From IMG/VR virus record IMGVR_UViG_2518285548_000002, positions 64,001-112,978 of that record: a stretch of 48,978 nt of DNA. One strand, given 5' to 3'. The notes below the pieces were generated by a model. It did no database searches, had not been told where the DNA came from, and saw nothing but the letters and a program-made list of their open reading frames with translations. How positions within the stretch are numbered: position 1 is the stretch's first letter; each line of letters opens with the position of its first letter. Shown piece after piece: positions 3,001-42,512 of this stretch. Origin of the DNA: a virus (lineage: Duplodnaviria > Heunggongvirae > Uroviricota > Caudoviricetes). Position numbers and translations under genes: made by a program.

Positions 3001-4639
3001 TAAAGGCGTTAGAGATACGTTCCTTCATAATACTCTTGCCGCGTTTAAAGGTGTCAGGGATGCAGAATTACCCTTCTCACTCGTTGTAAGCAAGGAATGC
3101 AGAGAAGCAGACATCCAGGATGAGTTGTTTGCTAGAAAGGATGTTAGGGATTCCCACCTTCATGAAACTATTGATGATGTATTAAAGCTCAGAAATGGTT
3201 CAATTGATGAAGGGATGTTATTTGGTGGCAAAGGTCTTAGGTACTTTCAGTTAATCGAGAACATATGCTCTTATAAAGGTATGAGGGGTGCTTATATCGA
3301 GGGTGATCTTACGGGTGGCACGGAAATTCGAGAAGGTCTTATGCACGAAGGGGAGTCGAATGTAGTTAAGTTAAGGAATGCAAGGCTTGACGAAGACATT
3401 ATATTCGCAAGTAAATCAGATCGAAGTGCTCAACTGCATGAAATTGAAGGTAATGTTGTCAAGGAGAGGTACGGAGATGTAGAGGGGGATTTTTATGGTA
3501 TCTCAATACAACGAATAGGCTACGTGGATGATGAGCTAACATACGGAAGAAAGATTCCTGATAGAGGATTCGTTGTGGGTGACGGAGAGATAATCGGTAA
3601 GAAGTTGACAGATGCAGGGTACACAAGTGATGAATACTCACTTGCTACTCATCTGAGCAGAGTTGGTTACGCTGAGAATGACTACTCGTTGGCTCATAAA
3701 GAGGATAGAGAATCTTACGTTGAAAGATCGCTTCCAGTCGGAACAGCTAATGCTAGGTTGTCAGAGATAGTAGACCCTGAATCCTTGGTAGCATCTTTTG
3801 AGGAGCGTTGTGCTCATGTAATTACGGGGTTTATCTTTGCAGAACGTCCTGAAGCACGGGCTGAGTATCTGGAACAACTCTTTGCTTTCCTGCCCGAGAG
3901 AACAGCGCATCTAATGGAGATCTACCATGAAGCGAAGATGGAGCCGCGAGACAGCTTCTTGCAAACTGATGAGCACTTAGCTTTCCGCGATCAGCCTGCT
4001 GAAGGGTATCTACCTATGATGGATACAATGGGGCAAGGGTTGATCTATGACTACTCCAACGACTTGCTCGATCAAGGAATGAACCCTGAAGACTGGGAGG
4101 GGGGGTTCGGAGTTCCCGAAGACTATGACCCTGATGACCCGTTCAACGTATACTACCCTTACTCTAAGGACATGGATGCGTTGGAACTATCTCAGACTGA
4201 TGACTGGATGGAGTTTGGTAGCGGTTCGTGGGAACGTGATAGATTAATAGGCAAGTTCTATTCTAAGAGTGACACACCTATGGTTAGTGGTTGGTATAGA
4301 AACAACTTCCTATCCGATAAATACAAGTTTTCTATCGACTTCAAGGTAGATACAGAGAATGAAGGGGAGGGTGCGGGAATCATCTTTAAGTACTACGATC
4401 AGAACAACTACTGGATGTTCATGGTACACGGAGGAGACCCCGACAATAGCCTTGGTATGAGAGTTCCTATGCAGTTATACAAGGTGGTCGGTGGCAACCC
4501 TACTCCAATTGGTTCCCCCATGCAACCATTTAAGTGGGAGAAAGACAAGTGGTACAAGCTATCGGTGTCGGTCATGGATGGTAGAATCCAAATCTATACT
4601 GATTCAAAACTTCAATACGATTTGACGGGCACCGATTAA
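2..4639 (+). CDS. Very large repeat-rich putative virion protein (5' partial); C-terminal ConA/LamG-like beta-sandwich
   Basis: The frame is open from base 2 (no stop before the TTG at 29), so the gene probably starts outside the window. It has ~15-16 aa repeats (xxEYxxGx; KGxRDxxL) and an aromatic beta-rich C-terminus (YKFSIDFKV...GAGIIFKYYDQNNYWMF). Confidence 0.75.
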   Translation, partial: GTRIDNGARLEVLKKLSVAARKDTFGGSATGDVVQALRDFEEKMLISDGELARRVIAHELTTHHNVLAKLKERRYPALLIKEMRAVRENTKDQIHRHNKLVGGVRVEHRYESILRPSDILWHPIHAHRIIDKNPTVTESGIILAHRDIDTLVHVERTLPWAVRDITEQMQLIDTLTPAQRIFVESMYVERDRPTAHRIAVVRGVVDREEAQQAYRDSTEYGFVFRDLQESRRVSKFAGCVSQEKPLAKRVLTEAIDVLSKYALGERVSKVEAYIEEEFYEGRTEPRSLLLPKVDSGAERTSAFDLETAEMPSADREFEHGLWLLEDYLADKETVRPTILHTTNTYDKNHVQKDMHLANKPLEFVRAPKRMNLETILRSIREIGRPTTIRDPLLDQLEGGGWLGNKEYQGYLDEDMIVGELLQDNPAVIMEMMIEAVQNAGAPAYLDNDFLGGVKKRIDALIDSGILTGSKDSTKSGIITLNLEGVKESLNGDYADDQLQASKTTLDGDIDESLTVAEKGVKESYLVNEYFEGTKTKETLHGEITEVIYGADYSSRPAIIQIEDYQGHLPTDRGLFPDDPEYMGSKGERGGITSEEYAMGSKYERGGYTSDEYAMGSNESREGELHIEFVMGSIPRDRDRTGILHEEYNLGTPNMRNMYLSEDYILGKSLSRQMHLSDKYSIGTAKNRELYINEDYSIGALKPQQSIIDIEHPLAILQLRQTFLRDEYSIGTARDRVGSTSDEYTLGSANLRQLHINDEYTIGTSKAQQSFIEDSMNEAVRGDRHGTVSDDTLFAVPGQRLSFLDACEVYADKSSKDSEIQIEVVADKLVHPSIIVKETVATKLSKGAHLHEVENNEGLFGVKGAKDTVTKLLLEGIKGEKVAETISEYLFGNKLPKNSFNFGDKTIFAVKGLKESVTIEDTLVGDKRVKDSYLYETLFATKNPKDSCLHESEESSKEKQGELEENLVADKPQYGYLDSSLPLGGTPVKYGTIEEENLFAYKGVRDTFLHNTLAAFKGVRDAELPFSLVVSKECREADIQDELFARKDVRDSHLHETIDDVLKLRNGSIDEGMLFGGKGLRYFQLIENICSYKGMRGAYIEGDLTGGTEIREGLMHEGESNVVKLRNARLDEDIIFASKSDRSAQLHEIEGNVVKERYGDVEGDFYGISIQRIGYVDDELTYGRKIPDRGFVVGDGEIIGKKLTDAGYTSDEYSLATHLSRVGYAENDYSLAHKEDRESYVERSLPVGTANARLSEIVDPESLVASFEERCAHVITGFIFAERPEARAEYLEQLFAFLPERTAHLMEIYHEAKMEPRDSFLQTDEHLAFRDQPAEGYLPMMDTMGQGLIYDYSNDLLDQGMNPEDWEGGFGVPEDYDPDDPFNVYYPYSKDMDALELSQTDDWMEFGSGSWERDRLIGKFYSKSDTPMVSGWYRNNFLSDKYKFSIDFKVDTENEGEGAGIIFKYYDQNNYWMFMVHGGDPDNSLGMRVPMQLYKVVGGNPTPIGSPMQPFKWEKDKWYKLSVSVMDGRIQIYTDSKLQYDLTGTD
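1745..3760 (+). repeat. Degenerate ~45-48 nt (15-16 aa) coding tandem repeats
   Basis: Clear 48-nt pair at 1748-1795 and 1796-1843 (GSKGERGGITSEEYAM / GSKYERGGYTSDEYAM). The period continues as HEEYNLGT, SEDYILGK, SDKYSIGT, NEDYSIGA, RDEYSIGT, SDEYTLGS, NDEYTIGT, then KGxRD-type units. The end coordinate is approximate. Confidence 0.75.
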
Positions 4640-4663
4640 CTCGGTGCTCTGTTTTTCGTATAG
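4629..4663 (+). promoter_or_regulatory. Phage promoter motif copy 1 (TTAA 4636-4639, CGTATAG 4657-4663) embedded in a terminator-like hairpin
   Basis: GCACCGA-ttaac-TCGGTGC stem-loop followed by a T-run; the TTAA overlaps the upstream stop codon; 17 nt between TTAA and CGTATAG. Confidence 0.8.
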
Positions 4664-4683
4664 AGAGGGTGAGGGGTGATTTC

Positions 4684-10526: not shown

Positions 10527-10554
10527 TTAAAATAGTCGAAGTCATGTCGTATAG
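10527..10554 (+). promoter_or_regulatory. Phage promoter motif copy 2
   Basis: TTAA-N17-CGTATAG, intergenic, upstream of RBS GGAGGTGA. Confidence 0.8.
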
Positions 10555-10585
10555 ATAGATTAGGGACAAGATTGGAGGTGATCAA

Positions 10586-18362: not shown

Positions 18363-18390
18363 TTAACACTCGCCTACCCGAGTCGTATAG
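18363..18390 (+). promoter_or_regulatory. Phage promoter motif copy 3 (replication operon)
   Basis: TTAAC-N16-CGTATAGAG. Confidence 0.8.
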
Positions 18391-18415
18391 AGCAAGTAGG
18401 GGGTGTGTATTTACC

Positions 18416-21463: not shown

Positions 21464-21507
21464 TTAACTCTTGGCTCCCCTCCTCGTATAGAGGAATTAG
21501 GGAGCCA
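21464..21507 (+). promoter_or_regulatory. Phage promoter motif copy 4 (TTAA 21464, CGTATAG 21485-21491); the -10 lies in a terminator-like hairpin
   Basis: TTAAC-N16-CGTATAGAG, within TGGCTCCC...TCCTC-gtata-GAGGA...GGGAGCCA plus a T-run. Confidence 0.8.
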
Positions 21508-26241: not shown

Positions 26242-26403
26242 TGTGGCGATCAGATAGACACTACACCTTGATGAAGCCTTTGGTAATCCTTTATACATAA
26301 AGACCATATTTCGGTAATTGGGAAGAAGACAAGTCAGACCAAGACCGACACATTCCACCTTCCTAGGTAAAACCTAGGGATGTGTTCTGTGTTGGTCTTT
26401 TTT
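26242..26403 (+). ncRNA. Putative ~160-nt small RNA
   Basis: Bounded by a near-consensus sigmaA promoter and a long 3' hairpin with a U-run; no RBS-led ORF inside. Confidence 0.5.
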
Positions 26404-26477: not shown

Positions 26478-26505
26478 TTAACAATTCTTAACTCGCTTCG
26501 TATAG
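26478..26505 (+). promoter_or_regulatory. Phage promoter motif copy 5 (primase-sigma operon)
   Basis: TTAAC-N16-CGTATAGAG. Confidence 0.8.
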
Positions 26506-26570
26506 AGCAAGTGTAAGGAAGTTTTAACATTTGGCATCGAAATAAATTTTGTGAGGTGGTAAAATATTAC

Positions 26571-27798: not shown

Positions 27799-27799
27799 A

Positions 27800-28382: not shown

Positions 28383-28417
28383 AGCCCTGAGAGATCATAC
28401 TCTCAGGGCTATTTTTA
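28383..28417 (+). terminator. Intrinsic terminator after the sigma gene
   Basis: AGCCCTGAGAG-atcata-CTCTCAGGGCT plus ATTTTT. Confidence 0.85.
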
Positions 28418-28461
28418 TGTCTTCAGGTATCTCCTTGTTTGAAAATTATTAGCTCTTGCAC

Positions 28462-28489
28462 TTAATTATCTCCTGAACACCTCGTATAG
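28462..28489 (+). promoter_or_regulatory. Phage promoter motif copy 6
   Basis: TTAA-N17-CGTATAGAG. Confidence 0.8.
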
Positions 28490-28547
28490 AGAAAGTGAGG
28501 GGCAAGAAGCCCACCACTAAAAAACGAAAAGGTTAAGGTGAACAAAC

Positions 28548-29304: not shown

Positions 29305-29320
29305 TTCGCGGTCTTTTTAT
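29290..29320 (+). terminator. Intrinsic terminator
   Basis: AAGATCGCGAA-gtga-TTCGCGGTCTT plus a T-run. Confidence 0.8.
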
Positions 29321-29321
29321 T

Positions 29322-29349
29322 TTAACTGTGGTCAGATCATGTCGTATAG
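29322..29349 (+). promoter_or_regulatory. Phage promoter motif copy 7
   Basis: TTAAC-N16-CGTATAGAG. Confidence 0.8.
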
Positions 29350-29368
29350 AGAACTTGAGGGAGGGGTT

Positions 29369-29428
29369 ATGTTGACCAATGAGGAGTTAGCCGCTAAAGA
29401 GGTTGACGTATACCGCGTACTAAACTAA
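29369..29428 (+). CDS. 19-aa micro-ORF MLTNEELAAKEVDVYRVLN
   Basis: Has its own promoter motif, RBS GGAGGGG and downstream terminator; below the ORF-track cutoff. Confidence 0.5.
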   Translation: MLTNEELAAKEVDVYRVLN

Positions 29429-29442
29429 ATAAGAGACTCCTC

Positions 29443-29479
29443 AAAGCACCCTTAACTGGGTGCTTTTCTTTTCGTATAG
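29443..29479 (+). promoter_or_regulatory. Terminator hairpin fused with phage promoter motif copy 8 (polA operon)
   Basis: AAAGCACCC-ttaact-GGGTGCTTT plus a T-run; TTAA 29452, CGTATAG 29473-29479. Confidence 0.82.
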
Positions 29480-29501
29480 AGAAAGTAGGAGGTGGTTGTG
29501 A

Positions 29502-31742: not shown

Positions 31743-31933
31743 TGCAAGTCAAAAGCGGCGTGTGGGTCAGGAACTCTGACCCTGAAGTTCGCATTTTAAT
31801 AGAGCGGGTCTACAAATCCAAGGACTATGTGGACTACTTTTACTTCATGTGTAAGTACACGGGCGGCGGCAGAATCACAAAAGCCGAACTGCTTGATCAA
31901 TATACCCGAGAGAAGAGAAATGAGGAAATTTGA
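31739..31933 (+). CDS. Hypothetical protein
   Basis: 64 aa, ATGA overlap, RBS GGAGGAGG. Confidence 0.6.
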   Translation: MMQVKSGVWVRNSDPEVRILIERVYKSKDYVDYFYFMCKYTGGGRITKAELLDQYTREKRNEEI

Positions 31934-32453
31934 AATGGTAATGCCTAAAGAAATCGAGCGTAAGTTCTTAGTACTAAACCCTGAGGAAGTCTTGGCTCAA
32001 GACTATCGAATTGTCACTAATACAATGACATATCAATCATACCTTGCGACAGGGAATTCTGAAGTTCGTGTTCGTCATACCGAGATGCAGGACGATAATA
32101 ACCAAACCATTGACCACCACTACTTCTTGACTATTAAGCATGGTCTTGGACTGGTGAGAGATGAGTTGGAGAACCGCATTTCACAGAACACATACTATCA
32201 AATTAGTGACTTGATTCCTGAGAAGCACATCTCAAAACGCCGCAAGGAACTTTCTATCGAGATTGACGGGGTAGAGCGCTTAGTTGAGTTCGATCACTAC
32301 GAGGACATCAACACCTTCATTATTGAGATCGAGTTCCCGTCTGAAGAAGAAGCAGAAAAGTTTATCCCTCCTTCTTGGTTCGGTAAAGAGGTAACTGAAG
32401 ACAAGAGCTACAAGGCTCAGAACATTTGGAAAGCTCTAAACAATAAAAAATAA
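31920..32453 (+). CDS. CYTH (triphosphate tunnel metalloenzyme) domain protein
   Basis: EIERKFLV, YL...EVRVR, LTIK, KRR, EFDHY, EIEF, PPSWFGKEVTEDKSYK. Confidence 0.88.
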   Translation: MRKFEMVMPKEIERKFLVLNPEEVLAQDYRIVTNTMTYQSYLATGNSEVRVRHTEMQDDNNQTIDHHYFLTIKHGLGLVRDELENRISQNTYYQISDLIPEKHISKRRKELSIEIDGVERLVEFDHYEDINTFIIEIEFPSEEEAEKFIPPSWFGKEVTEDKSYKAQNIWKALNNKK

Positions 32454-32472
32454 ACTGGGGGAAAATGTAGTC

Positions 32473-32892
32473 ATGACACCTATTCTTGAGATTAATAAAG
32501 GGTTCTCAATAAGTGATGCCCGTAATCTACCTGAAGGTAACTGGTTCAAAGAGAAGGGTTACTTCATGCAAGGCAAACCCAAATCATACACTCCTATCCA
32601 TGTGTACCTAAAAGAGCAAGACCTCCGTTTGTATTTCTGGTTTGACCATGACTTCTCTGAATGGTTCCGAAAGTACCTGACTCTTACAGGCGACTACGAG
32701 GGTAATGCTCTCGAAATCTATGGGATGTACTCAGAGCAGAGGGTCAAGGAGCTAAATAAACACGAAGCTAACCTTGGTGACAAAGCTATCGAAAAGAGCT
32801 ATAGCTATACTCTTGGTGGACGTAAGTTCTACTTCGTTGAACGCTTCGTAAACGTGAAGGTCGAAGTCTTGTGGCGTAAGGGTGGTTACTAA
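32473..32892 (+). CDS. Hypothetical protein
   Basis: 139 aa with RBS GGGGG. Confidence 0.7.
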   Translation: MTPILEINKGFSISDARNLPEGNWFKEKGYFMQGKPKSYTPIHVYLKEQDLRLYFWFDHDFSEWFRKYLTLTGDYEGNALEIYGMYSEQRVKELNKHEANLGDKAIEKSYSYTLGGRKFYFVERFVNVKVEVLWRKGGY

Positions 32893-33353
32893 TGCAAATA
32901 GCCATCTTCACTGATGGCTCGACATCTGCTAACGGTAAGCCAAACTGTGTTGGAGGGTGGGGAGCTGTGCTCCTCGTCCTTGACAATAACAGGCAAGTGC
33001 TTCACTACAAGGAGCTGTCGGGCGGTAAGAAAGGGACGACCATCGGAGAGATGGAACTGATGGCGGCATATGAAGCCATCAGAAGTCTGGACTTCGACAA
33101 AGCAAAGCATTGGAACATCCACATCGTATCCGACAGCCAGTATGTAGTGAACGCCTTCAAGGAGCGTTGCTACAAGTGGAAGATGGAGGGATGGGTTGAC
33201 CGACCAAACCTTAACCTTATCAAGTCAATATACCGCATGTCCGAATACCTCAATGTCAAGTGGCACTGGGTTAAGGGGCATGACGGAAATAAATACAACG
33301 AACGAGCTGATGAGCTTGCAAAAGAAGCCAAGGAAAGGATGAAGGAATTGTGA
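32892..33353 (+). CDS. rnhA: Ribonuclease HI
   Basis: FTDGS, GGWG, GEMELMA, IVSDSQYV, WVKGHDGNKYNERADELA. Confidence 0.93.
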   Translation: MQIAIFTDGSTSANGKPNCVGGWGAVLLVLDNNRQVLHYKELSGGKKGTTIGEMELMAAYEAIRSLDFDKAKHWNIHIVSDSQYVVNAFKERCYKWKMEGWVDRPNLNLIKSIYRMSEYLNVKWHWVKGHDGNKYNERADELAKEAKERMKEL

Positions 33354-33520
33354 CGGTAGTAGCTTGGATTTTCCTAACTGTATTCGGGCTTATTGGTTTC
33401 TTATTCCTTCGCAAGTTGATGTTGGAGAAGGTGAACAAGCACGAGCTGTACTTGATGCTGTTCTCTATCATTGTTACCGCATTATCTGCGGGTGTTATAT
33501 GGGGAGGGTTGTTCCGATGA
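33350..33520 (+). CDS. 56-aa two-TM membrane protein
   Basis: MTVVAWIFLTVFGLIGFLFLRKLMLEKVNKHELYLMLFSIIVTALSAGVIWGGLFR; GTGA and ATGA overlaps with both neighbours; not in the ORF track. Confidence 0.7.
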   Translation: MTVVAWIFLTVFGLIGFLFLRKLMLEKVNKHELYLMLFSIIVTALSAGVIWGGLFR

Positions 33521-34332
33521 GTCTAAAGAAACTTGCGAACATGGTAAAGAAGGAACAGAAGGCAAATAACAAGACCCCTGAGGAACTGTTTGTAGCTGTG
33601 CTCGACAAATTCCTCACTGGTCGTGACAATAAACGGTCAGGTAGATTGGCGTTTAACCCATCGAGCTACTACAAATGCGGGCGTATGCAGTTCTACAAGC
33701 TGACGGAACAGCCCGCCAAGAAGAAGCGTTATCCTCGCTCCGAGCGCATCCTTGACGTTGGTACTCAGCTTCACGAATGGGTTCAGACCCAGGTACTTAT
33801 GAAGATGGATGGAGACGACAATTCCACGATCAAGCTGATTCCTCTTGAGGAACTTCCTACCTACGGAGCTGAAGGCATTGAGTGGATTAAAGAGCATAAC
33901 GCCCCACCAATGGAGGTTAAATTCGTGGATAACCGATGGACGAAGAAGTTCCCGATCTCCGCAATGGTGGATGGGGCGTTGACATTCATGAACAAGGACA
34001 TTCTGTTTGAGTTCAAGACCATTAACCCAACGGACTATGAAAAGATTATTGAACCGCTAAAAGACCACCTGAAGCAGGGTGCTATCTACTGTTTAGGAAC
34101 AGGAACGAAGTACGTGATGTTCCTTTACCTTAACAAAGGTAACCAGGAGTGGAAGGCTTACATGGTTGAGTACCGTCAGGAGCAATTGGACTGGGTGGTA
34201 GCCCGCATCACTACTATTGAGGACTACGTTATTCGTGGGGAATTACCTCCTAAGGAGGAAAGTGCTAATTGCAAGTACTGCGAGTTCAAGTACCTATGTG
34301 ACGCAGACATAAAGGAGCCGAAGAAGAAATGA
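33517..34332 (+). CDS. Cas4-like PD-(D/E)XK exonuclease with 4-Cys cluster
   Basis: PSSYYKCGR, GTQLHEWVQ, MVDG, FEFKT, QGAIY, CKYCEFKYLC. Start moved to ATG 33517 (RBS GGGGAGG). Confidence 0.85.
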   Translation: MSLKKLANMVKKEQKANNKTPEELFVAVLDKFLTGRDNKRSGRLAFNPSSYYKCGRMQFYKLTEQPAKKKRYPRSERILDVGTQLHEWVQTQVLMKMDGDDNSTIKLIPLEELPTYGAEGIEWIKEHNAPPMEVKFVDNRWTKKFPISAMVDGALTFMNKDILFEFKTINPTDYEKIIEPLKDHLKQGAIYCLGTGTKYVMFLYLNKGNQEWKAYMVEYRQEQLDWVVARITTIEDYVIRGELPPKEESANCKYCEFKYLCDADIKEPKKK

Positions 34333-34688
34333 CCGTGATGAAGTGGGAACAGGAGCGTCGAGAGTGGGTCAAGTCGTTGAAAGAAGGCGACAAGGTTGCT
34401 TATTACAACACTATACAACATGGGTCTGAGAGACGATACAAGATTCTGACCGTCAAGAAGATTACTTCAAAAGGAAAGATTAGACTCTCTGACGACACTC
34501 TATTTGATGAGAAGGGAGACTATCGTTCTGGTACGGGATGGTACAGAAACTTCTACCGTCTTGAGCCAGTTACTAAAGAAATTATCGACCACATACGTAG
34601 GACTAAAATTCTTTACGATCTCAACAACACCAAGTTCGATAGCCTGACGTTGGACAAACTTGAAGAAATCATAAAGATCATCTCTTAA
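34329..34688 (+). CDS. Hypothetical protein (SH3/KOW-like beta barrel pattern)
   Basis: LKEGDKVAYY...ILTVKKITSKGKIRL. Confidence 0.65.
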   Translation: MTVMKWEQERREWVKSLKEGDKVAYYNTIQHGSERRYKILTVKKITSKGKIRLSDDTLFDEKGDYRSGTGWYRNFYRLEPVTKEIIDHIRRTKILYDLNNTKFDSLTLDKLEEIIKIIS

Positions 34689-34712
34689 CAATCACCACCT
34701 CGGTTCGTATAG
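34685..34712 (+). promoter_or_regulatory. Phage promoter motif copy 9
   Basis: TTAAC (overlapping the stop codon)-N16-CGTATAGAG. Confidence 0.8.
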
Positions 34713-34754
34713 AGAAAGTGTAAGGCGATTTAAGAACATCGAGGAGGAATTAGG

Positions 34755-35054
34755 ATGAAAGAGCAACCAAAAGTTAGCCAGTTCTTCAATATCCGTAAGA
34801 ACATCATAGAGATGGTTAAAGCCTTCCCTGAAGTTAAGGAGAATTACAACGAGCTTATATCTACCTACTGGGTACTATACGATAACCTGAAGGATATATC
34901 GGAGATTTGCAAGTCTACACCTGCTGAGACGATTACTCGCCAGTTCCGCAAATTGGTCGAGCTTGGAGAGGTTACACCACCTGTAAGGGTTCTTGAAGCT
35001 CGACAGGAGAAAGCTCGTGAGTTCCGAACAGAGTTCACAGCATTAGGGGGATGA
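34755..35054 (+). CDS. Hypothetical protein
   Basis: RBS GAGGAGG; 99 aa. Confidence 0.7.
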   Translation: MKEQPKVSQFFNIRKNIIEMVKAFPEVKENYNELISTYWVLYDNLKDISEICKSTPAETITRQFRKLVELGEVTPPVRVLEARQEKAREFRTEFTALGG

Positions 35055-35055
35055 G

Positions 35056-35160
35056 ATGATGTTTAATAAGCAGGTTGATCCACAAGTTCTCACTGTAATA
35101 ATACTTCTTTTCTTCTATGCTCTCGGCGTACTTAGCGGATTTTTGTACTACGGGGGTTAA
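35056..35160 (+). CDS. 34-aa single-TM peptide
   Basis: MMFNKQVDPQVLTVIILLFFYALGVLSGFLYYGG; RBS AGGGGG; fills the gap exactly. Confidence 0.55.
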   Translation: MMFNKQVDPQVLTVIILLFFYALGVLSGFLYYGG

Positions 35161-35165
35161 GAGAT

Positions 35166-35510
35166 ATGGGAGATAAGTTATGGAAAGCATTCGAACGATG
35201 GGTAGGTAAAAACATATTTGACGGGGCTAAGCGGAACATGGGGTCGGGGGCAATCAACAAAACCGACCAAGGTGAAGATCGTACTGGTGATGTCATTCAC
35301 CCTACCTACGAGATTGAGTGTAAATGTTATCAGAAGATTGCGGTATTTCGTTGGTGGGACAAGCTGAAGTTGGAAGCCAAAAAATCAGGTAAAACTCCTA
35401 TATTAGTCATGAAAGAAAAGGGAGATAACCAGGATGTACTAGTGACTATTCACTATACCCACTTTAATGAACTGAAAGAAACAAAGAAAAAATTGGAGGA
35501 ATTGACATGA
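35166..35510 (+). CDS. Holliday junction resolvase-like PD-(D/E)XK nuclease
   Basis: KAFER, GSGA, GDVIHPTYEIECK, WWDKLKLEA...KTPILV. Confidence 0.8.
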   Translation: MGDKLWKAFERWVGKNIFDGAKRNMGSGAINKTDQGEDRTGDVIHPTYEIECKCYQKIAVFRWWDKLKLEAKKSGKTPILVMKEKGDNQDVLVTIHYTHFNELKETKKKLEELT

Positions 35511-35617
35511 ACAAAAAATCAAAAGTATGGCTTGTCGTTGGTATTTGGGTGAACCTTTGGAATATTGGACTGAATTGTTACGTCCTTTGGCTAATAGCAA
35601 AGAAATTTGGTCTGTAA
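35507..35617 (+). CDS. 36-aa hydrophobic peptide
   Basis: MNKKSKVWLVVGIWVNLWNIGLNCYVLWLIAKKFGL; RBS GGAGG, ATGA overlap. Confidence 0.55.
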   Translation: MNKKSKVWLVVGIWVNLWNIGLNCYVLWLIAKKFGL

Positions 35618-35755
35618 TTGCCTAAGAAAAAATTGGGGGATTTATAGCAAATTTAATTCTCCTCGTTTTGGATTTGATTACATTACCTACTATGGTCGCT
35701 AATGTATATGTTTGAGGAAATATATCCAACAAAACTGAAAGGTGCGAAGTAATTA

Positions 35756-36307
35756 ATGCCCACTATTACTCGACAGCATATCGAGCAAGGCATCGAAAAC
35801 TTCACGTCAAGAGAATCTACCAAGTCTAAAATAGCTAAGGCGGGTCTACCAGTCCCGCCGAAGCCTGAGGACGCTGTGAATGGGGTTGACCTTTTCACGG
35901 AGTGGGAACAGATGAAACGAAGGTACGGTGGGGTGGCTAACGTGCCATTCTCCGAGCTAGGTGACTTCCTTGACAGGTGGACAACGATGATCTCCTATGC
36001 GAGATACTGTGAAGCCTTAGCTGACATCGACCAAGCTACTGCTCGGGAGATCAGGGACACAATCAAGAAACAATTGTACACGATACAGGAAGGTAGCCGC
36101 GAATTACGGGATGCCTCAGTTCATACGGAGCCTGTTTATATCGAATGGGAACAGACGTATACACAGAACCTCGCAACATTTATCACATTCCGCGCTCTAC
36201 GCGAAGGATACGAGCACCGCGCAAATGCGATCTCTCGGGAGATAACCCGTAGGGGTAACGATAATCTGGATACGAGAAGACAATTGAACAGGGGGAATCT
36301 GGCATGA
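35756..36307 (+). CDS. Hypothetical protein (helical)
   Basis: 183 aa, RBS AAAGGTG. Confidence 0.75.
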   Translation: MPTITRQHIEQGIENFTSRESTKSKIAKAGLPVPPKPEDAVNGVDLFTEWEQMKRRYGGVANVPFSELGDFLDRWTTMISYARYCEALADIDQATAREIRDTIKKQLYTIQEGSRELRDASVHTEPVYIEWEQTYTQNLATFITFRALREGYEHRANAISREITRRGNDNLDTRRQLNRGNLA

Positions 36308-36690
36308 GTAAGGATTTTCGATTGGTTGAGTTGGGTCACGAGCTTTTGGGGTTGCGTCTGAAGAAGTCTGAGATTGAGATTGCTGAAACCCGAATCAAGG
36401 ACGTTATCGCGGATATCCTTCGGGAGGAAGGCGTTGCAGAGAAAGTGGTTCCAGTGGATGAGCTTCATTGCCTTGCGTTCAAAAACAACTACCGTTACAC
36501 GAAGTCCTTCGACAAGGATGGTCTCGCATCTAAGACTGGTCGTGAGCGTGATGAACTGGACTACCAAGGGGTGTCTGCTCTCGTTGAGAAGCAAGTCGTC
36601 ACTTCCCATGTAGTTGGTCAGTTCCTCAGCGAGAATAAGTCTGAGTTTGTAACAGTTCGCAGACGCAAGCTTGAAAAGAAAAAGAAGTAA
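36304..36690 (+). CDS. Hypothetical protein
   Basis: 128 aa, ATGA overlap. Confidence 0.7.
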   Translation: MSKDFRLVELGHELLGLRLKKSEIEIAETRIKDVIADILREEGVAEKVVPVDELHCLAFKNNYRYTKSFDKDGLASKTGRERDELDYQGVSALVEKQVVTSHVVGQFLSENKSEFVTVRRRKLEKKKK

Positions 36691-36702
36691 GGAGGTAGCG
36701 GC

Positions 36703-36885
36703 ATGGAGATGAGCTTCCACAACTTAGTTCACGAGAAGATTATCCCGTTCATGCAGGGGAATAATCTCACGGATGGTACATTTAAGACCTCCGTGGGAGA
36801 CTCCGCTGTAATCAAACGGGATAAGCACGGCTTCTACAGCGTGAAGATTACCACAAGGGAGGATGTACGACTTGGTAAGGTTTGA
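36703..36885 (+). CDS. Hypothetical protein
   Basis: 60 aa, RBS AAGGAGGT. Confidence 0.7.
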   Translation: MEMSFHNLVHEKIIPFMQGNNLTDGTFKTSVGDSAVIKRDKHGFYSVKITTREDVRLGKV

Positions 36886-37183
36886 TGTTGTGGTCAGGGA
36901 TGGTAGTAGTTACGTAACGATATCACAGGGTTTCGAGCGAACTGTAATGGCTACAGGCATAGCCCTCGCTGACTTCAAGAAGTACCCGAAGATTAACAAT
37001 GAGTACTCATACAGTGAGTATGTGTATAAAGTCCTTGGCGGGTTCACAGACTTGCTTCGCGCTTTGAATGAGGTTGATAAGTTTGATGAACGGTCGCTCA
37101 ACAATGCTGTCGGTGCATTCGCTCCCTTCGTAACCATGAAGAAGGGTTGGGCAGAGATAGAAAAATTCGCAGAGGGGGAGTAA
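36863..37183 (+). CDS. Hypothetical protein
   Basis: 106 aa in a coupled run of genes. Confidence 0.65.
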   Translation: MYDLVRFDVVVRDGSSYVTISQGFERTVMATGIALADFKKYPKINNEYSYSEYVYKVLGGFTDLLRALNEVDKFDERSLNNAVGAFAPFVTMKKGWAEIEKFAEGE

Positions 37184-37186
37184 TCA

Positions 37187-38275
37187 ATGTCTGAAATCAC
37201 CATTGACGAACGTGACGGTGAGAGAGTAAAGCTCCTCAATCAATTCCGAAAGGAGTTCGGGGAACAGTCGATGTTTCTCCTCGGTAAGTCCGAGAAATTG
37301 TTCGACATCAATGTTCGCTCCTCAGGTTCCTTGATGCTCGACCTTGCACTTGGCGGCGGGTACGCCCAGGGTCGAATGGTGTTCCTGCGCGGCGGTGAAG
37401 CGGCAGGTAAGACAACCTTGGCACTTATGGCTATCGCTGAAGCACAGCAAGTAGAGCCTGAACGCGACAATGCAATCATTGACTTGGAAAATGCCTTGAA
37501 CCTTGAATGGGCTAAGACGTTAGGTGTTGACACTGACAAGCTGTTCATCTCTCAGCCAGATACATATGCTGAGAAAATCTACGGAATGATTCTGTCGATG
37601 CTTCGTAGTAAACGGTTTGCTTATATCGTACTGGACTCTACTGATGGTCTGATGTTGAAAAGCGAGATGGAGAATGATGACTTTGAGAAGGAGAATCGGG
37701 TGGGTGGTACGTCCAAGTTGAACTCCTCTGCAATGCGTAAGCTTGTCAATTCAGGTGAGTTGAAGAATTCTGGAACCACGTTGATATTCATTCAGCAGTT
37801 AAGAGACAAGATCGGAGCCTTCTCAATGTATGGTACACCTACAGATTCCTCAGGCGGACGAGCTTTCAAGCATAACTCCACCCAAACACTAGACGTTAGT
37901 AAGGGTGAGTTCTTTGCTAAGGGGTCAGGGGCGTCCAAAGTAATCCTTGGTCAGCAATCCAAACTCAAGGTATCCAAGAACAAAATCGCTCCGCCTTTTA
38001 AGACAGCTACCATTGATCTGTATTATGCACACGGCATGGACAGAATTATGGAGCTTGTGTCGGTAGCAAAGGAAGTCAGTGTACTAAGCGGTACATCCTG
38101 GCTTAAACTTGTTGACCCTACCACGGGAGAGATTGTACCTGATGCGGAGGGCAAGGAGCAGAAATGGAACGGTATCGCCAAGGCGAAGGAAGCAATAGAA
38201 CAGGATGTTCAAGAAAACGGCGGTCAGCTTTACAACCTGATCTACGATCTTGTGCAAAAAACAATCAGGGGGTAA
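37187..38275 (+). CDS. recA: RecA-like recombinase
   Basis: SSGSLMLDLALGGG, Walker A GGEAAGKTT, IDLENAL, LFISQPD, VLDS, FIQQLR, GGRAFK, KNKIAPPFK. Confidence 0.95.
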   Translation: MSEITIDERDGERVKLLNQFRKEFGEQSMFLLGKSEKLFDINVRSSGSLMLDLALGGGYAQGRMVFLRGGEAAGKTTLALMAIAEAQQVEPERDNAIIDLENALNLEWAKTLGVDTDKLFISQPDTYAEKIYGMILSMLRSKRFAYIVLDSTDGLMLKSEMENDDFEKENRVGGTSKLNSSAMRKLVNSGELKNSGTTLIFIQQLRDKIGAFSMYGTPTDSSGGRAFKHNSTQTLDVSKGEFFAKGSGASKVILGQQSKLKVSKNKIAPPFKTATIDLYYAHGMDRIMELVSVAKEVSVLSGTSWLKLVDPTTGEIVPDAEGKEQKWNGIAKAKEAIEQDVQENGGQLYNLIYDLVQKTIRG

Positions 38276-38281
38276 AAACGT

Positions 38282-38533
38282 ATGGAAGCCATTGCTTGGG
38301 GTATTGGGGTTGCGGGGGTAGCTTATGCTACCTCCTTATCTTTAGGCTACTTACTCAATTATTTACTAGAGAAGAAAGCTCAGAAATTGTATGAGGAAGC
38401 TATTAAAGACTTAGTAGAAGAAAACAAAGAACAAATTATTGAGAACGTAGAGGGTGCGTTCACAACTAAGATTGCTCACTTCATGGAACAGGAGCGTTTA
38501 GCAAGAAAGCGAGAGGAGATCCTTCATGTCTAA
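38282..38533 (+). CDS. Hypothetical protein with N-terminal TM helix
   Basis: AIAWGIGVAGVAYATSLSLGYLLNYLL. Confidence 0.7.
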   Translation: MEAIAWGIGVAGVAYATSLSLGYLLNYLLEKKAQKLYEEAIKDLVEENKEQIIENVEGAFTTKIAHFMEQERLARKREEILHV

Positions 38534-38906
38534 GAGCCAAGGTCAGATCGCATCTAAACGTCAGGAGATGCGTATTACGCGCAGTTTACAGATGATCAAA
38601 CAGGAAGCAAAGCGTGTTATGGCTTCAGGGGCGTTGTGGTTTGCAAAGAGTGATGTGGTAACACCGCTCTTTCAAATTGAAGCCAAAACTAAGGCAAGAA
38701 ATTCTAAGTCTATAACCTTGAAAAAGGAGTGGATGGAGAAGATCGAGCAGGAAGCGTTCGATAACAGGAAAATTCCTGCTTTGGTATTCTCTTTTGGTGA
38801 CAGCACTGACTACTTCGTATTACGAGACAAGGACTTCTACGCGATGGTTGAGGAGCTTTCTGAGTTGAGGGGGAAGGTGTATGGCGAGCAGTCAGATAAC
38901 AGTTAA
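38526..38906 (+). CDS. Second Holliday junction resolvase-like nuclease
   Basis: KRQE, ASGALW..KSDV...FQIEAKTK, SITLKKEW..KI..EA....IPAL. Confidence 0.8.
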   Translation: MSKSQGQIASKRQEMRITRSLQMIKQEAKRVMASGALWFAKSDVVTPLFQIEAKTKARNSKSITLKKEWMEKIEQEAFDNRKIPALVFSFGDSTDYFVLRDKDFYAMVEELSELRGKVYGEQSDNS

Positions 38907-39228
38907 AGTCTGCGAGTTCTGCGGCAAGGAGTACAAGGATGATGATCGTTACGGTTATTGCCTTAACCACGAGTACCCTGTACGTCCGAAGCTGAAGCAG
39001 ATTACTCGTGACAAGCAACGGGTCGGCGGGACGTTCAAGATTGTGGATTGGTTCTCAACCCGTGCAAGTGCAGGGTTAACTATAGAGCATGGGGAGACTG
39101 GTGAACAGTTCAACGTTTATATGTCTGATCTGTTCAAATATCTCGATGGTAAGGAGCTTGGTACTCTGACTCTTGAAGAAATCAAGAAAGGTCAAGCCTA
39201 TGGATGGATGGTGTTAGATAATGCTTAG
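38881..39228 (+). CDS. Hypothetical protein with N-terminal Cys motif
   Basis: CEFCGK...C..H; 115 aa. Confidence 0.7.
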   Translation: MASSQITVKVCEFCGKEYKDDDRYGYCLNHEYPVRPKLKQITRDKQRVGGTFKIVDWFSTRASAGLTIEHGETGEQFNVYMSDLFKYLDGKELGTLTLEEIKKGQAYGWMVLDNA

Positions 39229-39574
39229 TGCTACAGCAGTTGGTTTCACAGTAGATGAGGTTACCCAGTTTTCCCACATAGCCTGGGCACTTCATGACCC
39301 TAGATCAGCCGCCGACCTGACGGAGAGAGAGTACATGCTTATGGCTAAGCAAATGGTATATCAATCAGATGTACTTGTATGCAATCTTAATCGTGAAGGA
39401 CTTACTCCTGATGAGGTCGTCTTAATCCATTCTGCCTATACTAACTCTACACCTATTCTAGCAGTAGGATACAAGATTCTAACACCTCTCCTGAAAGAGA
39501 TGGTGTCTCATCGTTTTGCTGATCTTGAGCATCTTGTTGACCATCTAATGGCTAACTACAAAATATCGAAATAA
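39221..39574 (+). CDS. Hypothetical protein, weakly nucleoside 2-deoxyribosyltransferase-like
   Basis: SDVLVCNL...AYTNSTPILAVG resembles the NDT pattern ADvvvA.l...ayalgKPv; adjacent to the RNR. Confidence 0.5.
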   Translation: MLSATAVGFTVDEVTQFSHIAWALHDPRSAADLTEREYMLMAKQMVYQSDVLVCNLNREGLTPDEVVLIHSAYTNSTPILAVGYKILTPLLKEMVSHRFADLEHLVDHLMANYKISK

Positions 39575-39594
39575 CGGGGAGGAGAAGCAAAAAG

Positions 39595-41892
39595 ATGGCG
39601 TTACTTGTAACTACACGACCTGCGGAAACAAAAATCATTAATGGCAAATGGGTTCTCGGTGAGGACTTTCTAAGCAAGTATCGCGGAAAACAACCTAGAT
39701 GGGGCTTTGACGGTCTCGGTTGGGTAGTATATGTACGTACTTATGCACGGACAAAAGAGGATGGAACCCTTGAATCCATGCATGAAACGGCTGAACGTGT
39801 TACCTTGGGTAACTTCAACCTGATCATGACTGAAGGTAACTTCGTTGGACAAATAGACCCTACGGTAACGAAGGAGGAAGTAGAACGCTTCTATCACCTG
39901 TTCTTCAACCTTGCTCTCACACCGCCTGGACGAGGTTGGTGGATGAGTGGTACCGCATATGCCCTTACTTGCGGGGATGCCTTGAACAATTGTTGGTATA
40001 CCGATGTGGTGCCCCAGGCTCGTCACATCGGCGGCAAAGTGCTTCACTCCACCCCGTTCGTGTTCACTTTCGATCAGGCTATGAAAGGCGGCGGTGTGGG
40101 CGCGGGCATCTACAAGGAGAACATCGACCAATTCGCTGTTACTTCCAACGAGGTTAAGCTCACGTTTGTAGTGAACAAGGGCAACGCAGTCATTCCTGAG
40201 CTAAAGCAGGTCGGAGTCAAGTTCATAACGAAAGAACAGTACACTTCCCGAATGAAGAAGAAAGGCAAGAACCACAAAAAGAACATCCGTTACTTCACTG
40301 TGCCTGATAGCCGAGAGGGTTGGGATGAAAGCTTAGCTAAGACCATCGACCTTCACTTCGAGAATCCTTCTAAGTATGCTTCCAAGCCAATTCGTCTATA
40401 CGTAGACCTGTCTCTCATCCGTCCTCGTGGAGCGAAGATCGCTCGTTTCGGCGGCACAGCTAGTGGCTCAATGCCTTTAGCTAAGGGTCTCACGCAGATC
40501 AACAGCATCTTCAATCGTTCTGCTCAGGAGAATCGCCGCATTACTACCGTAGAAGCAGGTGACTGTATCCAAATCATCGGTACCGTGGTTGTAGCGGGCA
40601 ATGTCAGACGAACGGCATTAATCCTTATTGGTGACGAGGACGATGTAGCGTTCATTGAGTCCAAGGATTACTCTAAGATGGGTCTTGAGCCTTCGCAGTG
40701 GAGATGGGCTTCCAACAATTCCATCATTATCACTTGTTCGACTCCTCGTGAACGTTTGAAGGATGCCGCAGGTTCGATCTACTTCAATGGTGAACCAGGA
40801 ATTGTAAACATCGAACTTAGCCGTAATTATGGTCGCATCATTGACGGATTACAGGCACTTATTGATGGTCGTGCCCGTGGGACTAACCCTTGCGGTGAGG
40901 TTACGTTGGAGGACAAGGAGCCGTGTAATCTATTCGAGATCAATCTCGTGCGTTGCCGTGAGCTTGGGGTATCGTGGGAAGAAGCGGCATATCTAGCAAC
41001 TCGTTACGCATATCGTGTGACCTTCATGCCTTATGAGTGGGACAGGTCGCGTGAAGTAGTGTATGAGAACCGCCGCACGGGGGTGGCAGTGACAGGGGTC
41101 TCTGACTATGAACTCTTGTACTGTGATGGAGACTATGACCTTCTTGCGAAAGATTTAGAGGAGCTATATGGTCATGTAGTGATGACTAACAAATACCACG
41201 CTAAGGCTCTAGGAACAAAGGAATCCATAAAGAAAACGACTGTTAAGCCTTCAGGTTCACAGTCCAAAGTAATGGGTGTGTCAGCGGGACAACACGATCA
41301 CTGGGGTGAGTACTTCATCCAACGTATGCGTATCGCGGCAGATGCCCCTATTATGGACTTGATCTTCCAGTCGGGCTACCCTGTTGAATATGCTATCAAC
41401 GGTCGTCATAACGATGGTACGCCAGTATATGATATGAACACTTGCGTGGTCGAGTTTCCTGTTAAGGCACCAACAGCAGGTCACCCTAAATTCCGTTCCT
41501 CCGCAGAAGTTCCTTTAATGGAGCAAGCTGAACGTCAGGCACTTCTACAAACGTACTGGGCTGACAATGCAGTATCGGCAACCCTAACGTTCAAGAAGGC
41601 TGAGAAACTTCCAAATGGTACTTGGAAGAACGGAATTCGTGATGAGGATGTAGTGGACGAGATTACTGAGGTGCTGACTAAGTACCAAAACGTGTTTAAA
41701 TCCACTTCACTACTGCCACACCAAATTGGAACCTACGATCAAATGCCTTGGGAAACAATTGACAAGGTAGAGTATGATCGCCGTGTAGCTGAGTTGAAGG
41801 GGCGTCCTTGGGATTTTATGCAAGGCGGCTTGAGAGCTGTAGAAGATGAGCTTGAGCAAGATTGCGTAGGCGGGGCTTGCCCGATTCGTTAA
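39595..41892 (+). CDS. nrdJ: Class II (adenosylcobalamin-dependent) ribonucleoside-triphosphate reductase, monomeric type
   Basis: PPGRGWW, LNNCW, MKGGGVG, VVAGNVRRTA, GTNPCGEVTL, TTVKPSG, and a C-terminal CVGGACPIR redox pair. Confidence 0.92.
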   Translation: MALLVTTRPAETKIINGKWVLGEDFLSKYRGKQPRWGFDGLGWVVYVRTYARTKEDGTLESMHETAERVTLGNFNLIMTEGNFVGQIDPTVTKEEVERFYHLFFNLALTPPGRGWWMSGTAYALTCGDALNNCWYTDVVPQARHIGGKVLHSTPFVFTFDQAMKGGGVGAGIYKENIDQFAVTSNEVKLTFVVNKGNAVIPELKQVGVKFITKEQYTSRMKKKGKNHKKNIRYFTVPDSREGWDESLAKTIDLHFENPSKYASKPIRLYVDLSLIRPRGAKIARFGGTASGSMPLAKGLTQINSIFNRSAQENRRITTVEAGDCIQIIGTVVVAGNVRRTALILIGDEDDVAFIESKDYSKMGLEPSQWRWASNNSIIITCSTPRERLKDAAGSIYFNGEPGIVNIELSRNYGRIIDGLQALIDGRARGTNPCGEVTLEDKEPCNLFEINLVRCRELGVSWEEAAYLATRYAYRVTFMPYEWDRSREVVYENRRTGVAVTGVSDYELLYCDGDYDLLAKDLEELYGHVVMTNKYHAKALGTKESIKKTTVKPSGSQSKVMGVSAGQHDHWGEYFIQRMRIAADAPIMDLIFQSGYPVEYAINGRHNDGTPVYDMNTCVVEFPVKAPTAGHPKFRSSAEVPLMEQAERQALLQTYWADNAVSATLTFKKAEKLPNGTWKNGIRDEDVVDEITEVLTKYQNVFKSTSLLPHQIGTYDQMPWETIDKVEYDRRVAELKGRPWDFMQGGLRAVEDELEQDCVGGACPIR

Positions 41893-41898
41893 ATAAAT

Positions 41899-41931
41899 AA
41901 GGCGTGATTCCTTCGGGAGTCACGCCTTTTT
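41899..41931. terminator. Strong, probably bidirectional intrinsic terminator
   Basis: AAGGCGTGATTCC-ttcg-GGAGTCACGCCTT with A-run before and T-run after. Confidence 0.9.
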
Positions 41932-41944
41932 AAATTTGGAATCA

Positions 41945-42041
41945 ACACGAATAGACCGATCCGCGTCCAGATCAGCCTAAGGTCTTGAATTTCCCAGGTA
42001 TGTAAACGACAAAACCTCTGCGACTAGCCACAGATTCGTGT
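41945..42041 (-). ncRNA. Putative structured RNA (multi-helix junction with possible kissing loops)
   Basis: 8-bp closing stem enclosing three hairpins; G.U pairs form on the - strand but become A.C mismatches on +; family not recognised. Confidence 0.55.
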
Positions 42042-42075
42042 AAAGCAGTGGTACCACATTAGCTTTATACCCAAT

Positions 42076-42103
42076 TTAACTTCTTATTATTCATGTCGTA
42101 TAG
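42076..42103 (+). promoter_or_regulatory. Phage promoter motif copy 10
   Basis: TTAAC-N16-CGTATAGAG. Confidence 0.8.
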
Positions 42104-42125
42104 AGAAATTAAGGAGGTGAAATTA

Positions 42126-42488
42126 GTGCGGAAAGAATGCACAAGCATAACCCCGTTAGAAAGAGAAGCTATCATGCGGTTCGTGGATGGTAATTTTACC
42201 TTTACTACTGATTGTCTATCAGGAATGTTAAGCCGAGGTCTAGTGAGAGCTAATGTGATGGAGTCCTTGGCTAATGGTGACATCATAGAGTACATCTTCG
42301 AGGGAAACAAGAGTTGTATCCTTGTGAAGTCTCGGATGAAGTTCTCAAACAAAAACGTCCTAGTAACCTTGCAATTGAAATCACGAGAGATCGTGAGTGT
42401 TGCATGGGAATCCGAGAGGGATACACCTAATCAATCGGAGTATAGCTCTAAGCTTGACATCATAAAAAACTTGAGCAAGCACGCTTAA
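42126..42488 (+). CDS. DUF4258-like (RelE/BrnT-fold) protein, degenerate
   Basis: FTTDCLSGMLSRGLVRANVMESLANGDIIEY...VSVAW resembles F..HA..RM.ER.I......L.NG.IIEY...VT.W. Start is the GTG at 42126 after AAGGAGGTGA. Confidence 0.5.
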   Translation: MRKECTSITPLEREAIMRFVDGNFTFTTDCLSGMLSRGLVRANVMESLANGDIIEYIFEGNKSCILVKSRMKFSNKNVLVTLQLKSREIVSVAWESERDTPNQSEYSSKLDIIKNLSKHA

Positions 42489-42512
42489 CTTAGGTTAAAC
42501 CGTGTCGTATAG
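42485..42512 (+). promoter_or_regulatory. Phage promoter motif copy 11
   Basis: TTAAC (overlapping the stop codon)-N16-CGTATAGAG. Confidence 0.8.

Follow-up and report, generated by a model that had tools for sequence, protein, structure and literature searches.

A repeated two-box motif and its probable reader, a small sigma factor, in a large Brevibacillus prophage

Strict repeats at gene boundaries raise the question of what reads them. Such repeats occur in the IMG/VR virus record IMGVR_UViG_2518285548_000002 (Caudoviricetes), of which positions 64,001 to 112,978 were analyzed. This stretch of 48,978 bases, hereafter called the window, is the minus strand of 1,083,341-1,132,318 in a single-contig 5.40-Mb Brevibacillus genome and belongs to an integrated prophage. 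A first-pass annotation, made from the letters of the window, had listed by eye eleven copies of a two-box motif and had attributed them to an extracytoplasmic function (ECF)-like sigma factor encoded at 27800-28360. Based on pattern matching, weight-matrix scans and comparison with related elements, the repeats are most likely a promoter family, and they are probably read by the host core RNA polymerase together with this small phage sigma factor.

Layout of the motif

The pattern TTAA-N17-CGTATAGA has 11 exact matches in the window, all on the plus strand and none on the minus strand, at the same starts as those listed by eye (Table 1); the chance expectation from dinucleotide-preserving shuffles is a mean of 0.02 and a maximum of 1. 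The T said to precede CGTATAGA is present in 11 of 11 copies, and the 9-mer TCGTATAGA occurs exactly 11 times in the window, confined to the motif sites. The base after TTAA, when recounted, is again C in 9 of the 11 copies, with A at 10527 and T at 28462. The full consensus is cTTAACt-N14-TCGTATAGAGaaAGT, and conservation extends further 3' than had been seen, via GAG-aaAGT-g-GG, to give cTTAACt-N14-TCGTATAGAG-aaAGT-g-GG. A weight matrix was built from the 11 window sites and applied to the window and then to the whole 5.4-Mb genome. No further copy of at least 13 bits was found in the window, so the by-eye list, which had left room for additional copies, is complete for it. Both boxes are invariant and the distance between them is fixed, whereas the spacer varies freely in sequence. 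Two notations fit the motif, AAC-N16-CGTA and TTAACT-N17-TATAGA; the former, which had already been likened to SigW promoters and is present in all copies, is the ECF/SigW-type geometry used by two-domain sigma factors.

Every site is intergenic, as expected from the gene-boundary placement first described. The end of the -10 box lies 11-57 nucleotides (nt) from a Shine-Dalgarno-led start codon at 9 of the 11 window sites, and longer leaders are found at 26478 (185 nt) and at 29322 (151 nt), which is in tandem with 29452. Over the prophage as a whole, 17 of the 19 scanned copies have a Shine-Dalgarno-led start codon on the same strand within 400 nt, usually 11-60 nt from the -10 box. The copy at -44119 (negative numbers are positions before the window) is exceptional in having only an open reading frame (ORF) of 31 amino acids (aa), 170 nt off, and the copy at -30584 (L002:10585-10613, opposite strand) is antisense and without an ORF. 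The latter stands just upstream of the 567-aa gene that opens the packaging/structural block and points backwards; its transcript would reach a hairpin after about 60 nt and, relative to the last part of the gene before it, would be antisense.

An intrinsic terminator immediately precedes many of the copies, and the TAA within TTAAC doubles as the stop codon of the upstream gene at 4636, 34685 and 42485. At 4636 and 29452, the terminator hairpin has TTAAC as its loop, and its T run falls within the spacer. At 4636, the stem of this terminator-like hairpin is 4629-4635 / 4641-4647, and the spacer is nearly unchanged in Paenibacillus elements. The overlaps with terminators and stop codons suggest that the transcription units are packed and mutually insulated.

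The assignment as a promoter family is based on the invariant boxes, the fixed spacing, the free spacer, the co-orientation, the short distance to the next gene and the terminators upstream of or around the -35 box. Conservation that runs about 10 nt beyond the -10-like box, into the would-be transcript, and the overlap of several copies with hairpins could instead suggest operators for a DNA-binding regulator, or RNA signals for processing or anti-termination. We consider this highly improbable, because a fixed 16/17-nt box spacing with a free spacer, strict co-orientation and a position 11-60 nt before ribosome-binding sites are the signature of a promoter. Moreover, the boxes are not palindromic, unlike usual operators, and distant relatives lose the downstream GAAAGT but keep both boxes. 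A promoter for a T7-like single-subunit RNA polymerase was considered for TATAGAGA and rejected, because the boxes are split by a free spacer and no polymerase gene is present among the family-annotated genes (the search was not exhaustive). The consensus sequences of the sporulation sigma factors (E, K, F and G), SigB and SigH each fit the motif less well than that of the ECF type.

The factor that may read the motif

The genome-wide scan gave 21 sites of at least 20 bits, namely 18 in the prophage and 3 on one small island, and the remaining genome peaks at about 16 bits. The 18 prophage sites comprise the 11 in the window, 1 on the same strand 4.6 kb before it and 6 on the opposite strand 30-59 kb before it. 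A 16.3-bit site on the same strand, located about 1 kb ahead of the window and 66 nt from an 1864-aa tail gene downstream of it, is probably a real weaker copy; the class thus numbers at least 18-19 in a prophage of about 113 kb. In the 5.4-Mb scan, no host gene has a strong copy, and over the 900 nt upstream of each of the 36 host sigma genes no site exceeds 9 bits. Such a scan of phage and host had been proposed at first pass, where equal frequency in the host chromosome was held to point to a host factor; the motif proved to be strongly enriched in the phage.

These distributions bear on the possibility that a host sigma factor, such as a SigW-like ECF factor, reads the motif and that the phage exploits the host stress response. 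In its favor, a host TGAAAC-N16-CGTATA site lies about 120 nt ahead of the ECF sigma gene at 2,355,315 and shares the -10 half, and some genomes without any detectable homologue of the small sigma factor have full-consensus copies. However, host genes throughout the 5.4 Mb lack sites above 16 bits, and copies are absent upstream of the host sigma genes. The -35 box is TGAAAC in 0 of the 21 strong sites, which have TTAAC, or TAAAC, TTAAA or TTAAT. Furthermore, the copies in other genomes are located solely on mobile elements, and among 401 genomes the motif clusters track the phage sigma factor and not host taxonomy. A host reader is therefore quite unlikely. Host TGAAAC-N16-CGTATA sites were observed at 2,355,193 and about 10 further places, suggesting that a SigW-like regulon shares the -10 half with the phage motif.

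The pairing of sigma gene and motif suggested at first pass is borne out by comparison across genomes, in which the two travel together. Eighteen homologues of the small sigma factor were found, with 51-100% identity and mostly from Paenibacillus. All fetched loci with a sigma homologue (43-83% identity; L010, L011, L012, L015, L016, L017, L018, L019 and the element of genome G008) have the same two boxes at corresponding gene starts, and their spacers have diverged. The matching places of TTAAC-N15-TCGTATA are after the sigma gene, before the SSB-like gene, before the DNA polymerase gene and before the replication organizer gene; a copy at the position matching 28462 is present in L010, L012, L015, L017, L018 and L019. 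The most distant contigs retain both boxes but have a decayed GAAAGT tail. In an even sample of 401 Bacilli genomes, in which related genomes are not independent, the small sigma factor was found in 13 (6 Brevibacillaceae and 7 Paenibacillus). At least one strict copy is present in 12 of these 13 and two or more in 8, within tens of kb of the sigma gene, compared with two or more in just 3 of the 388 genomes without the sigma factor. A relatives search with the small sigma factor alone gave one unrelated match in genome contigs and none in viral contigs, and tblastn against phages gave one weak match only. The Brevibacillus phage Jenst escapes the latter search because its sigma factor gp051 is only 22% identical to the small sigma factor.

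The product of 27800-28360 is, as first described, a sigma factor composed of regions 2 and 4. Its Pfam matches are PF04542 (region 2, 37 bits) and PF04545 (region 4, 29.7 bits), both over the cut-off, with no region-3 match in the same scan, and it scores 66.6 bits against TIGR02937 (cut-off 42.9). D44, V45, Q47 and E48 of region 2.2 and the helix-turn-helix (HTH) residues of region 4 are invariant across the 18 homologues. An AlphaFold model built with these homologues consists of two helical domains (8-94 and 125-185) joined by a linker with a predicted local distance difference test (pLDDT) score below 50, the mean pLDDT being 71. In a Foldseek search with this model, all top matches are sigma factors, headed by the model of B. 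subtilis SigH and followed by ECF sigma factors (Mycobacterium tuberculosis SigH, E. coli sigma-E, SigW and CnrH) mixed with larger sigma factors. By sequence, the closest solved relative is the SigH factor 3mzy (E = 1e-5; SigW, E = 0.04), and among host paralogues a SigH-like gene of about 225 aa is the nearest. The PF07638 Sigma70_ECF score is 16.8 bits, under the cut-off of 21.1, and none of the ECF-specific NCBIfam models was reached. No anti-sigma gene adjoins the sigma gene, which is preceded by the primase gene and followed by a terminator, a new promoter copy and the SSB-like gene; many, though not all, ECF sigma factors have an anti-sigma partner in their operon. The protein therefore has the two-domain (ECF-type) architecture, and its nearest cellular relatives are SigH-type by both sequence and fold. 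The label "ECF-like" given at first pass is therefore fair for the domain layout and the promoter type, without assigning the protein to a defined ECF group.

About 550 nt upstream of the primase-sigma operon (26150-26690) are conserved in five relatives, in the order of a host sigma-A-type promoter (P1), a structured RNA, the 26478 copy of the motif and a second host-type promoter-like element (P3). Thus, a promoter of the sigma factor's own putative type precedes the sigma operon, and this layout is kept in the five relatives and in G008. The small sigma factor may be positively autoregulated via the 26478 copy: the conserved host-type promoters would allow the unmodified host enzyme to make the small sigma factor, which could then reinforce its own synthesis. 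The structured RNA could be a small RNA or an attenuator; no Rfam family was found in the window at gathering scores, with chance-level matches only in 26100-26750. A reading of 26571-26589 as a palindromic operator was rejected, since there is no second copy in the window and the sequence fits the -35 box and spacer of a promoter-like element better.

Several observations weigh against the small sigma factor as the reader. When written as TTAACT-N17-TATAGA, the motif has a weak sigma-A layout, lacking the critical final T of the -10 box. Full-consensus copies are also present in G049, G001, G009, G021 and G040-42, where no small-sigma homologue was found. All elements of sufficient length for a judgement (L011, L016, L028, L030 and L031) contain the second phage sigma factor, encoded here at 46344-47156, alongside the small one, so that co-occurrence cannot separate the two. 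Finally, Jenst is so distant that all of its sigma factors have diverged along with its motif.

The second sigma factor might itself read the motif, leaving some other role to the small one. It is retained beside the small sigma factor in every defective element, it lies downstream of motif copies and would also reinforce itself, and promoters of group-3 sigma-28-type factors have a CG-containing -10 box (TAAA-N15-GCCGATAA). However, 3.9 kb separate its gene from the nearest motif copy upstream and no conserved host-type promoter was noted ahead of it, for which no systematic scan was made, so that its first expression would be unexplained, compared with two such promoters at the small-sigma operon. 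The AAC-N16-CGTA geometry is typical of two-domain sigma factors and not of SigF/G/B, according to established consensus sequences. In a P. silvae remnant, the small sigma gene is separated by motif copies from the SLT and big-sigma genes, an order expected for a cascade. In addition, the weight-matrix scan gave no copies in the block of about 25 kb, just upstream of the window, that spans the packaging to tape-measure genes, so this block needs another factor. On balance, this alternative is unlikely, and the second sigma factor is more likely a late sigma factor. The first-pass annotation had proposed that one sigma factor drives both the middle and late modules. Replication and recombination genes and some of the distal tail genes do have the motif ahead of them, but the copy-free head-tail block and the SigB/F/G-type sigma gene downstream of the last copy fit a cascade better than a single factor. 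Within the copy-free block, the sequence TATYCTAA was observed right after terminator hairpins and before ribosome-binding sites (window-relative -24183, -23121 and -9578), and CTTATAATG was observed in like places in Jenst (L032:13950-13990, 28390-28430 and 33640-33678). Five of the 12 TATYCTAA matches are intergenic, a weak hint of a second, -10-only class of late promoters.

With the small sigma factor as the probable reader, a possible mechanism was proposed for the control of this prophage. The conserved host-type promoters at 26206-26235 and 26571-26600 would yield the first small sigma factor, which could then act on the TTAAC-N15-TCGTATAGAG promoters, including that at 26478 before its own operon, to set up positive feedback. 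Transcription may start about 5-8 nt after TATAGA, within the conserved GAAAGT, to give very short leaders into the ribosome-binding site. The motif promoters would head short insulated units, many of which begin right after or inside a terminator. These units could cover replication, recombination, nucleotide metabolism and several distal tail genes, as well as opposite-arm accessory genes and the run of genes up to and including the SigF/G-type sigma gene. Next, the second sigma factor would probably take over for the copy-free head-tail block. In this scheme, the layout of the elements is read from the sequence, and their activity and the order of events are inferred from it.

Prophage features, reduced relatives and orphan copies

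Table 1. Positions of the motif copies and of other features (window coordinates, except where a locus is given; L and G numbers are our handles for loci and genomes)
Feature	Position	Strand	Remarks
Candidate promoter copy	4636..4670	+	40.2 bits; ahead of 1568-aa distal tail/fibre-region gene
Candidate promoter copy, TTAAA variant	10527..10561	+	30.5 bits; ahead of 588-aa coiled-coil structural gene; orthologous copy in L011
Candidate promoter copy	18363..18397	+	Ahead of HTH_36 replication organizer (start 18416), then IstB-like loader and DnaB helicase; orthologous copies in L010, L015
Candidate promoter copy	21464..21498	+	Ahead of operon from 107-aa gene to DNA ligase, RtcB, ThyX; orthologous copies in L010, L015, L011
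Candidate promoter copy	26478..26512	+	Ahead of primase-small sigma operon; kept in 5 relatives, degenerate in two remnants
Candidate promoter copy, TTAAT variant	28462..28496	+	Just after sigma gene and terminator, ahead of SSB-like 200-aa gene
Candidate promoter copy	29322..29356	+	Upstream member of tandem pair before DNA polymerase A
Candidate promoter copy	29452..29486	+	47.8 bits, best site; directly before DNA polymerase A; TTAAC in loop of hairpin 29443-29466
Candidate promoter copy	34685..34719	+	Ahead of operon with 99-aa gene, PDDEXK nuclease and RecA
Candidate promoter copy	42076..42110	+	Ahead of 120-aa gene (start 42126)
Last candidate promoter copy	42485..42519	+	Ahead of gene run from 42563 through SLT (45112-45882) to SigF/G-type sigma (46344-47156)
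XerD-like recombinase	17449-18285	-	Family search
HTH_36 replication organizer, IstB-like loader, DnaB	18416-21460		Family search
DNA ligase, RtcB, ThyX	22276-25613		Family search
Host sigma-A-type promoter P1	26206..26235	+	TTGACT-18-TATAAT, 11/12; kept in 5 relatives
Conserved structured RNA, about 160 nt	26243..26400	+	Ends in long terminator hairpin; 39 pairs, 4 with compensatory changes; between P1 and 26478 copy
Host-type promoter-like element P3	26571..26600	+	TTGCGA-18-TATTCT, TG before -10; between 26478 copy and primase; read from alignment
DnaG-type primase	26692-27798	+	First gene of operon ending in small sigma
Small sigma factor, 186 aa	27800..28360	+	Region 2, disordered linker of about 35 residues, region 4; proposed motif reader
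Intrinsic terminator closing primase-sigma operon	28383..28410	+	11-bp stem, T run
Single-stranded DNA-binding (SSB)-like protein, 200 aa	28548-29150		Family search
DNA polymerase A	29502-31742		Family search
RNase H	32892-33353		Family search
RecA	37187-38275		Family search
SLT transglycosylase	45112-45882		Family search
Second phage sigma factor, 270 aa	46344..47156	+	Regions 2, 3, 4; SigB/F/G family
Large serine recombinase, prophage right end	47467-48978	+	Family search
IS110-family transposases with upstream copy	L022:5530-7017, L022:16895-18305, L024:2553-4068, L025:3674-4268		DEDD_Tnp_IS110 and Transposase_20

The G+C content is 40.7% for the genome and 45.7% for the window, and gene orientation and G+C delimit a foreign block of about 113 kb that extends from about 64 kb before the window to about +49 kb. 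In the left arm, most genes are read from the opposite strand. The window strand carries a 49-kb structural module, from about -31.8 kb to +17.4 kb, which includes giant distal tail genes and a 2737-aa gene that, judged by its size and position, is probably the tape-measure gene; the replication and recombination module occupies the remainder of the window. The large serine recombinase at the right end is likely the prophage integrase, and no motif copy was found ahead of its gene in the weight-matrix scan. The prophage has a further recombinase, the XerD-like protein in mid-element, whose gene has its own near-consensus sigma-A promoter at 18358-18329. Close to where the structural module begins, a small gene is immediately preceded by three tandem units of 18-19 nt (AAATCCTGTTTTTTGGGA type; about L002:8790-8860; window-relative about -28850 to -28790), which could be a packaging or terminase-binding site. 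A 20-kb megablast query gave no match in the phage collection. Three RNA-seq runs with the same species label have 0 reads over 24500-44499, and the strain used evidently lacks the prophage.

Eight Brevibacillus species, among 61 genomes of the order, share a tail-only element with a sigma factor 43% identical to the small one. In the G008 tail-only element (L027-L029, G008:650001-710000), one of the two motif copies lies before the sigma operon and the other in the tail genes. In many Brevibacillus and Paenibacillus species, tail-only or otherwise cut-down relatives of the prophage occupy one fixed chromosomal position, which in Paenibacillus is between ytfJ-like and dacB-spmAB genes. The elements of G008, L011 and L016 retain both sigma genes, the SLT gene and two or three motif copies, and Paenibacillus G174, G186, G283, G324, G332, G364 and G372 have the small sigma factor and 2-3 strict copies. 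These cut-down elements look like domesticated tailocin-type elements, probably under sigma control.

Other copies are found on small islands. The three non-prophage sites of the host genome are full-strength copies within 2.4 kb on an island of about 4 kb, 1.5 Mb from the prophage (L006:8965-13002; genome about 2,675,960-2,680,000). One heads the gene for a 508-aa large serine recombinase and another a 39-aa ORF; the third heads the gene for a DnaD/HTH_36-type replication initiator, which has a split small serine recombinase beside it, and there is no sigma gene nearby. In the orphan-copy genomes listed above, the small sigma factor was found by neither protein nor profile search, the best match (46 bits) being a host SigH-like gene, with 8,000 bases in G001 and G040 outside the search. 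In the Brevibacillaceae genomes G049 (L021:291-5615) and G021 (L023:2427-6866), a divergent pair of copies has a 512-aa serine recombinase gene on one side and the genes for a 69-aa protein and a 316-aa replication protein on the other. The G049 island also carries HNH endonuclease and AbiJ abortive-infection genes further along the strand of the replication protein, after a 154-nt gap. The island adjoins a tRNA/rRNA uracil methyltransferase gene. In G049, G001 and G009, a copy with the same spacer lies about 250 nt ahead of an IS110-family transposase gene; since spacer and leader are identical in three species, the promoter seems to be part of the IS110 mobile unit. In G040-42, a copy lies beside a Hin-type invertase gene.

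Either another factor reads these orphan copies or they await an incoming phage, and they may be remnants. It is conceivable, though doubtful, that the islands are satellites or defence islands wired to the sigma factor of an invading phage, which would stay silent until that factor appears and then excise, replicate and perhaps kill the cell.

Significance and comparison with known systems

The motif provides a computable map of transcription units in a large temperate Brevibacillus phage of a group relevant to honeybee-associated and insecticidal Brevibacillus and Paenibacillus. Because the motif found here in Jenst has another sequence, at least two sigma/promoter pairs of like layout exist in this phage group, and if each sigma factor reads only its own promoter, the pairs could become genetic tools for Firmicutes. 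In the tail-only, probably domesticated elements, sigma factor and promoter may control tailocin-like particles. The mechanism itself is well known from the SPO1 paradigm and has already been proposed in print for the Jenst cluster with another motif, and the lineage is little studied. The orphan copies on small islands are the sole aspect that could be new: if these islands truly respond to the phage sigma factor, they would represent a new infection-sensing route for satellites or defence islands.

In Jenst and SecTim467, a promoter-like motif (19 and 20 copies, respectively) precedes replication, nucleotide-metabolism and transcription genes and is absent from the host (Berg et al. 2016, PMC4909266). 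This motif was proposed, without experiment, to recruit a phage sigma factor, and its sequence is not spelled out in the text of that paper (PMC4909266). A reading of the Jenst genome gave 0 matches to TTAA-N17-CGTATA and 0 to TTAAC-N15-TCGTATAGA. In this reading, the two-box motif that recurs in Jenst is GCAACT-N16-CGACCATAAA, with AGTG after it, in 12 strict copies. Its copies lie right after gp051, before a run that includes the helicase, the primase and gp051, and before genes leading to an SLT gene and the sigma gene gp117. The core replication proteins of the two phages are about 33% identical. Both elements are large Brevibacillus siphophages with a repeated two-box motif and share the gene order of primase, small sigma factor, motif copy, next gene and DNA polymerase. 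On the other hand, Jenst has AAC-N17-CGAC (SigX/SigM type) in place of the AAC-N16-CGTA (SigW type) found here, and the present element, unlike Jenst, is an integrated prophage with a large serine recombinase. Jenst may thus represent a sister specificity, with shared architecture and a different promoter sequence, which fits the small primase-adjacent sigma factor as the putative reader. The Jenst motif was said to occur also in Bacillus phage Basilisk (Berg et al., PMC4909266); in that genome (KC595511; L007 and L008), neither TTAAC-N15-TCGTATA nor the Jenst-type motif was found with the patterns used.

The resemblance to SigW lies in the same AAC-N16-CGTA geometry, SigW promoters being TGAAAC-N16-CGTA. 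In contrast, the phage motif has TTAAC and never TGAAAC at -35, an extra invariant T before CGTA and TAGAG after it, and no anti-sigma gene is adjacent to the small sigma gene. In phage SPO1, gp28 replaces sigma-A on the host core polymerase and turns on the middle (replication) genes, one or more further phage sigma factors acting late, and the middle promoter consensus is AGGAGA-N17-TTTNTTT. The present system resembles that of gp28 in having a phage sigma factor, a host-type promoter before its gene and phage-specific two-box promoters at replication genes. It differs in its consensus and in having the sigma gene inside the replication module, behind its own promoter type. The SPO1 transcription cascade is summarized in PMC13401047.

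For the orphan copies only, the P2/P4 helper-satellite system can be compared. There, satellite promoters answer the transcription activator of the helper, and the satellite wakes only when the helper develops. The shared signal in the present case would be a sigma-specific promoter on islands with a serine recombinase and a replication initiator.

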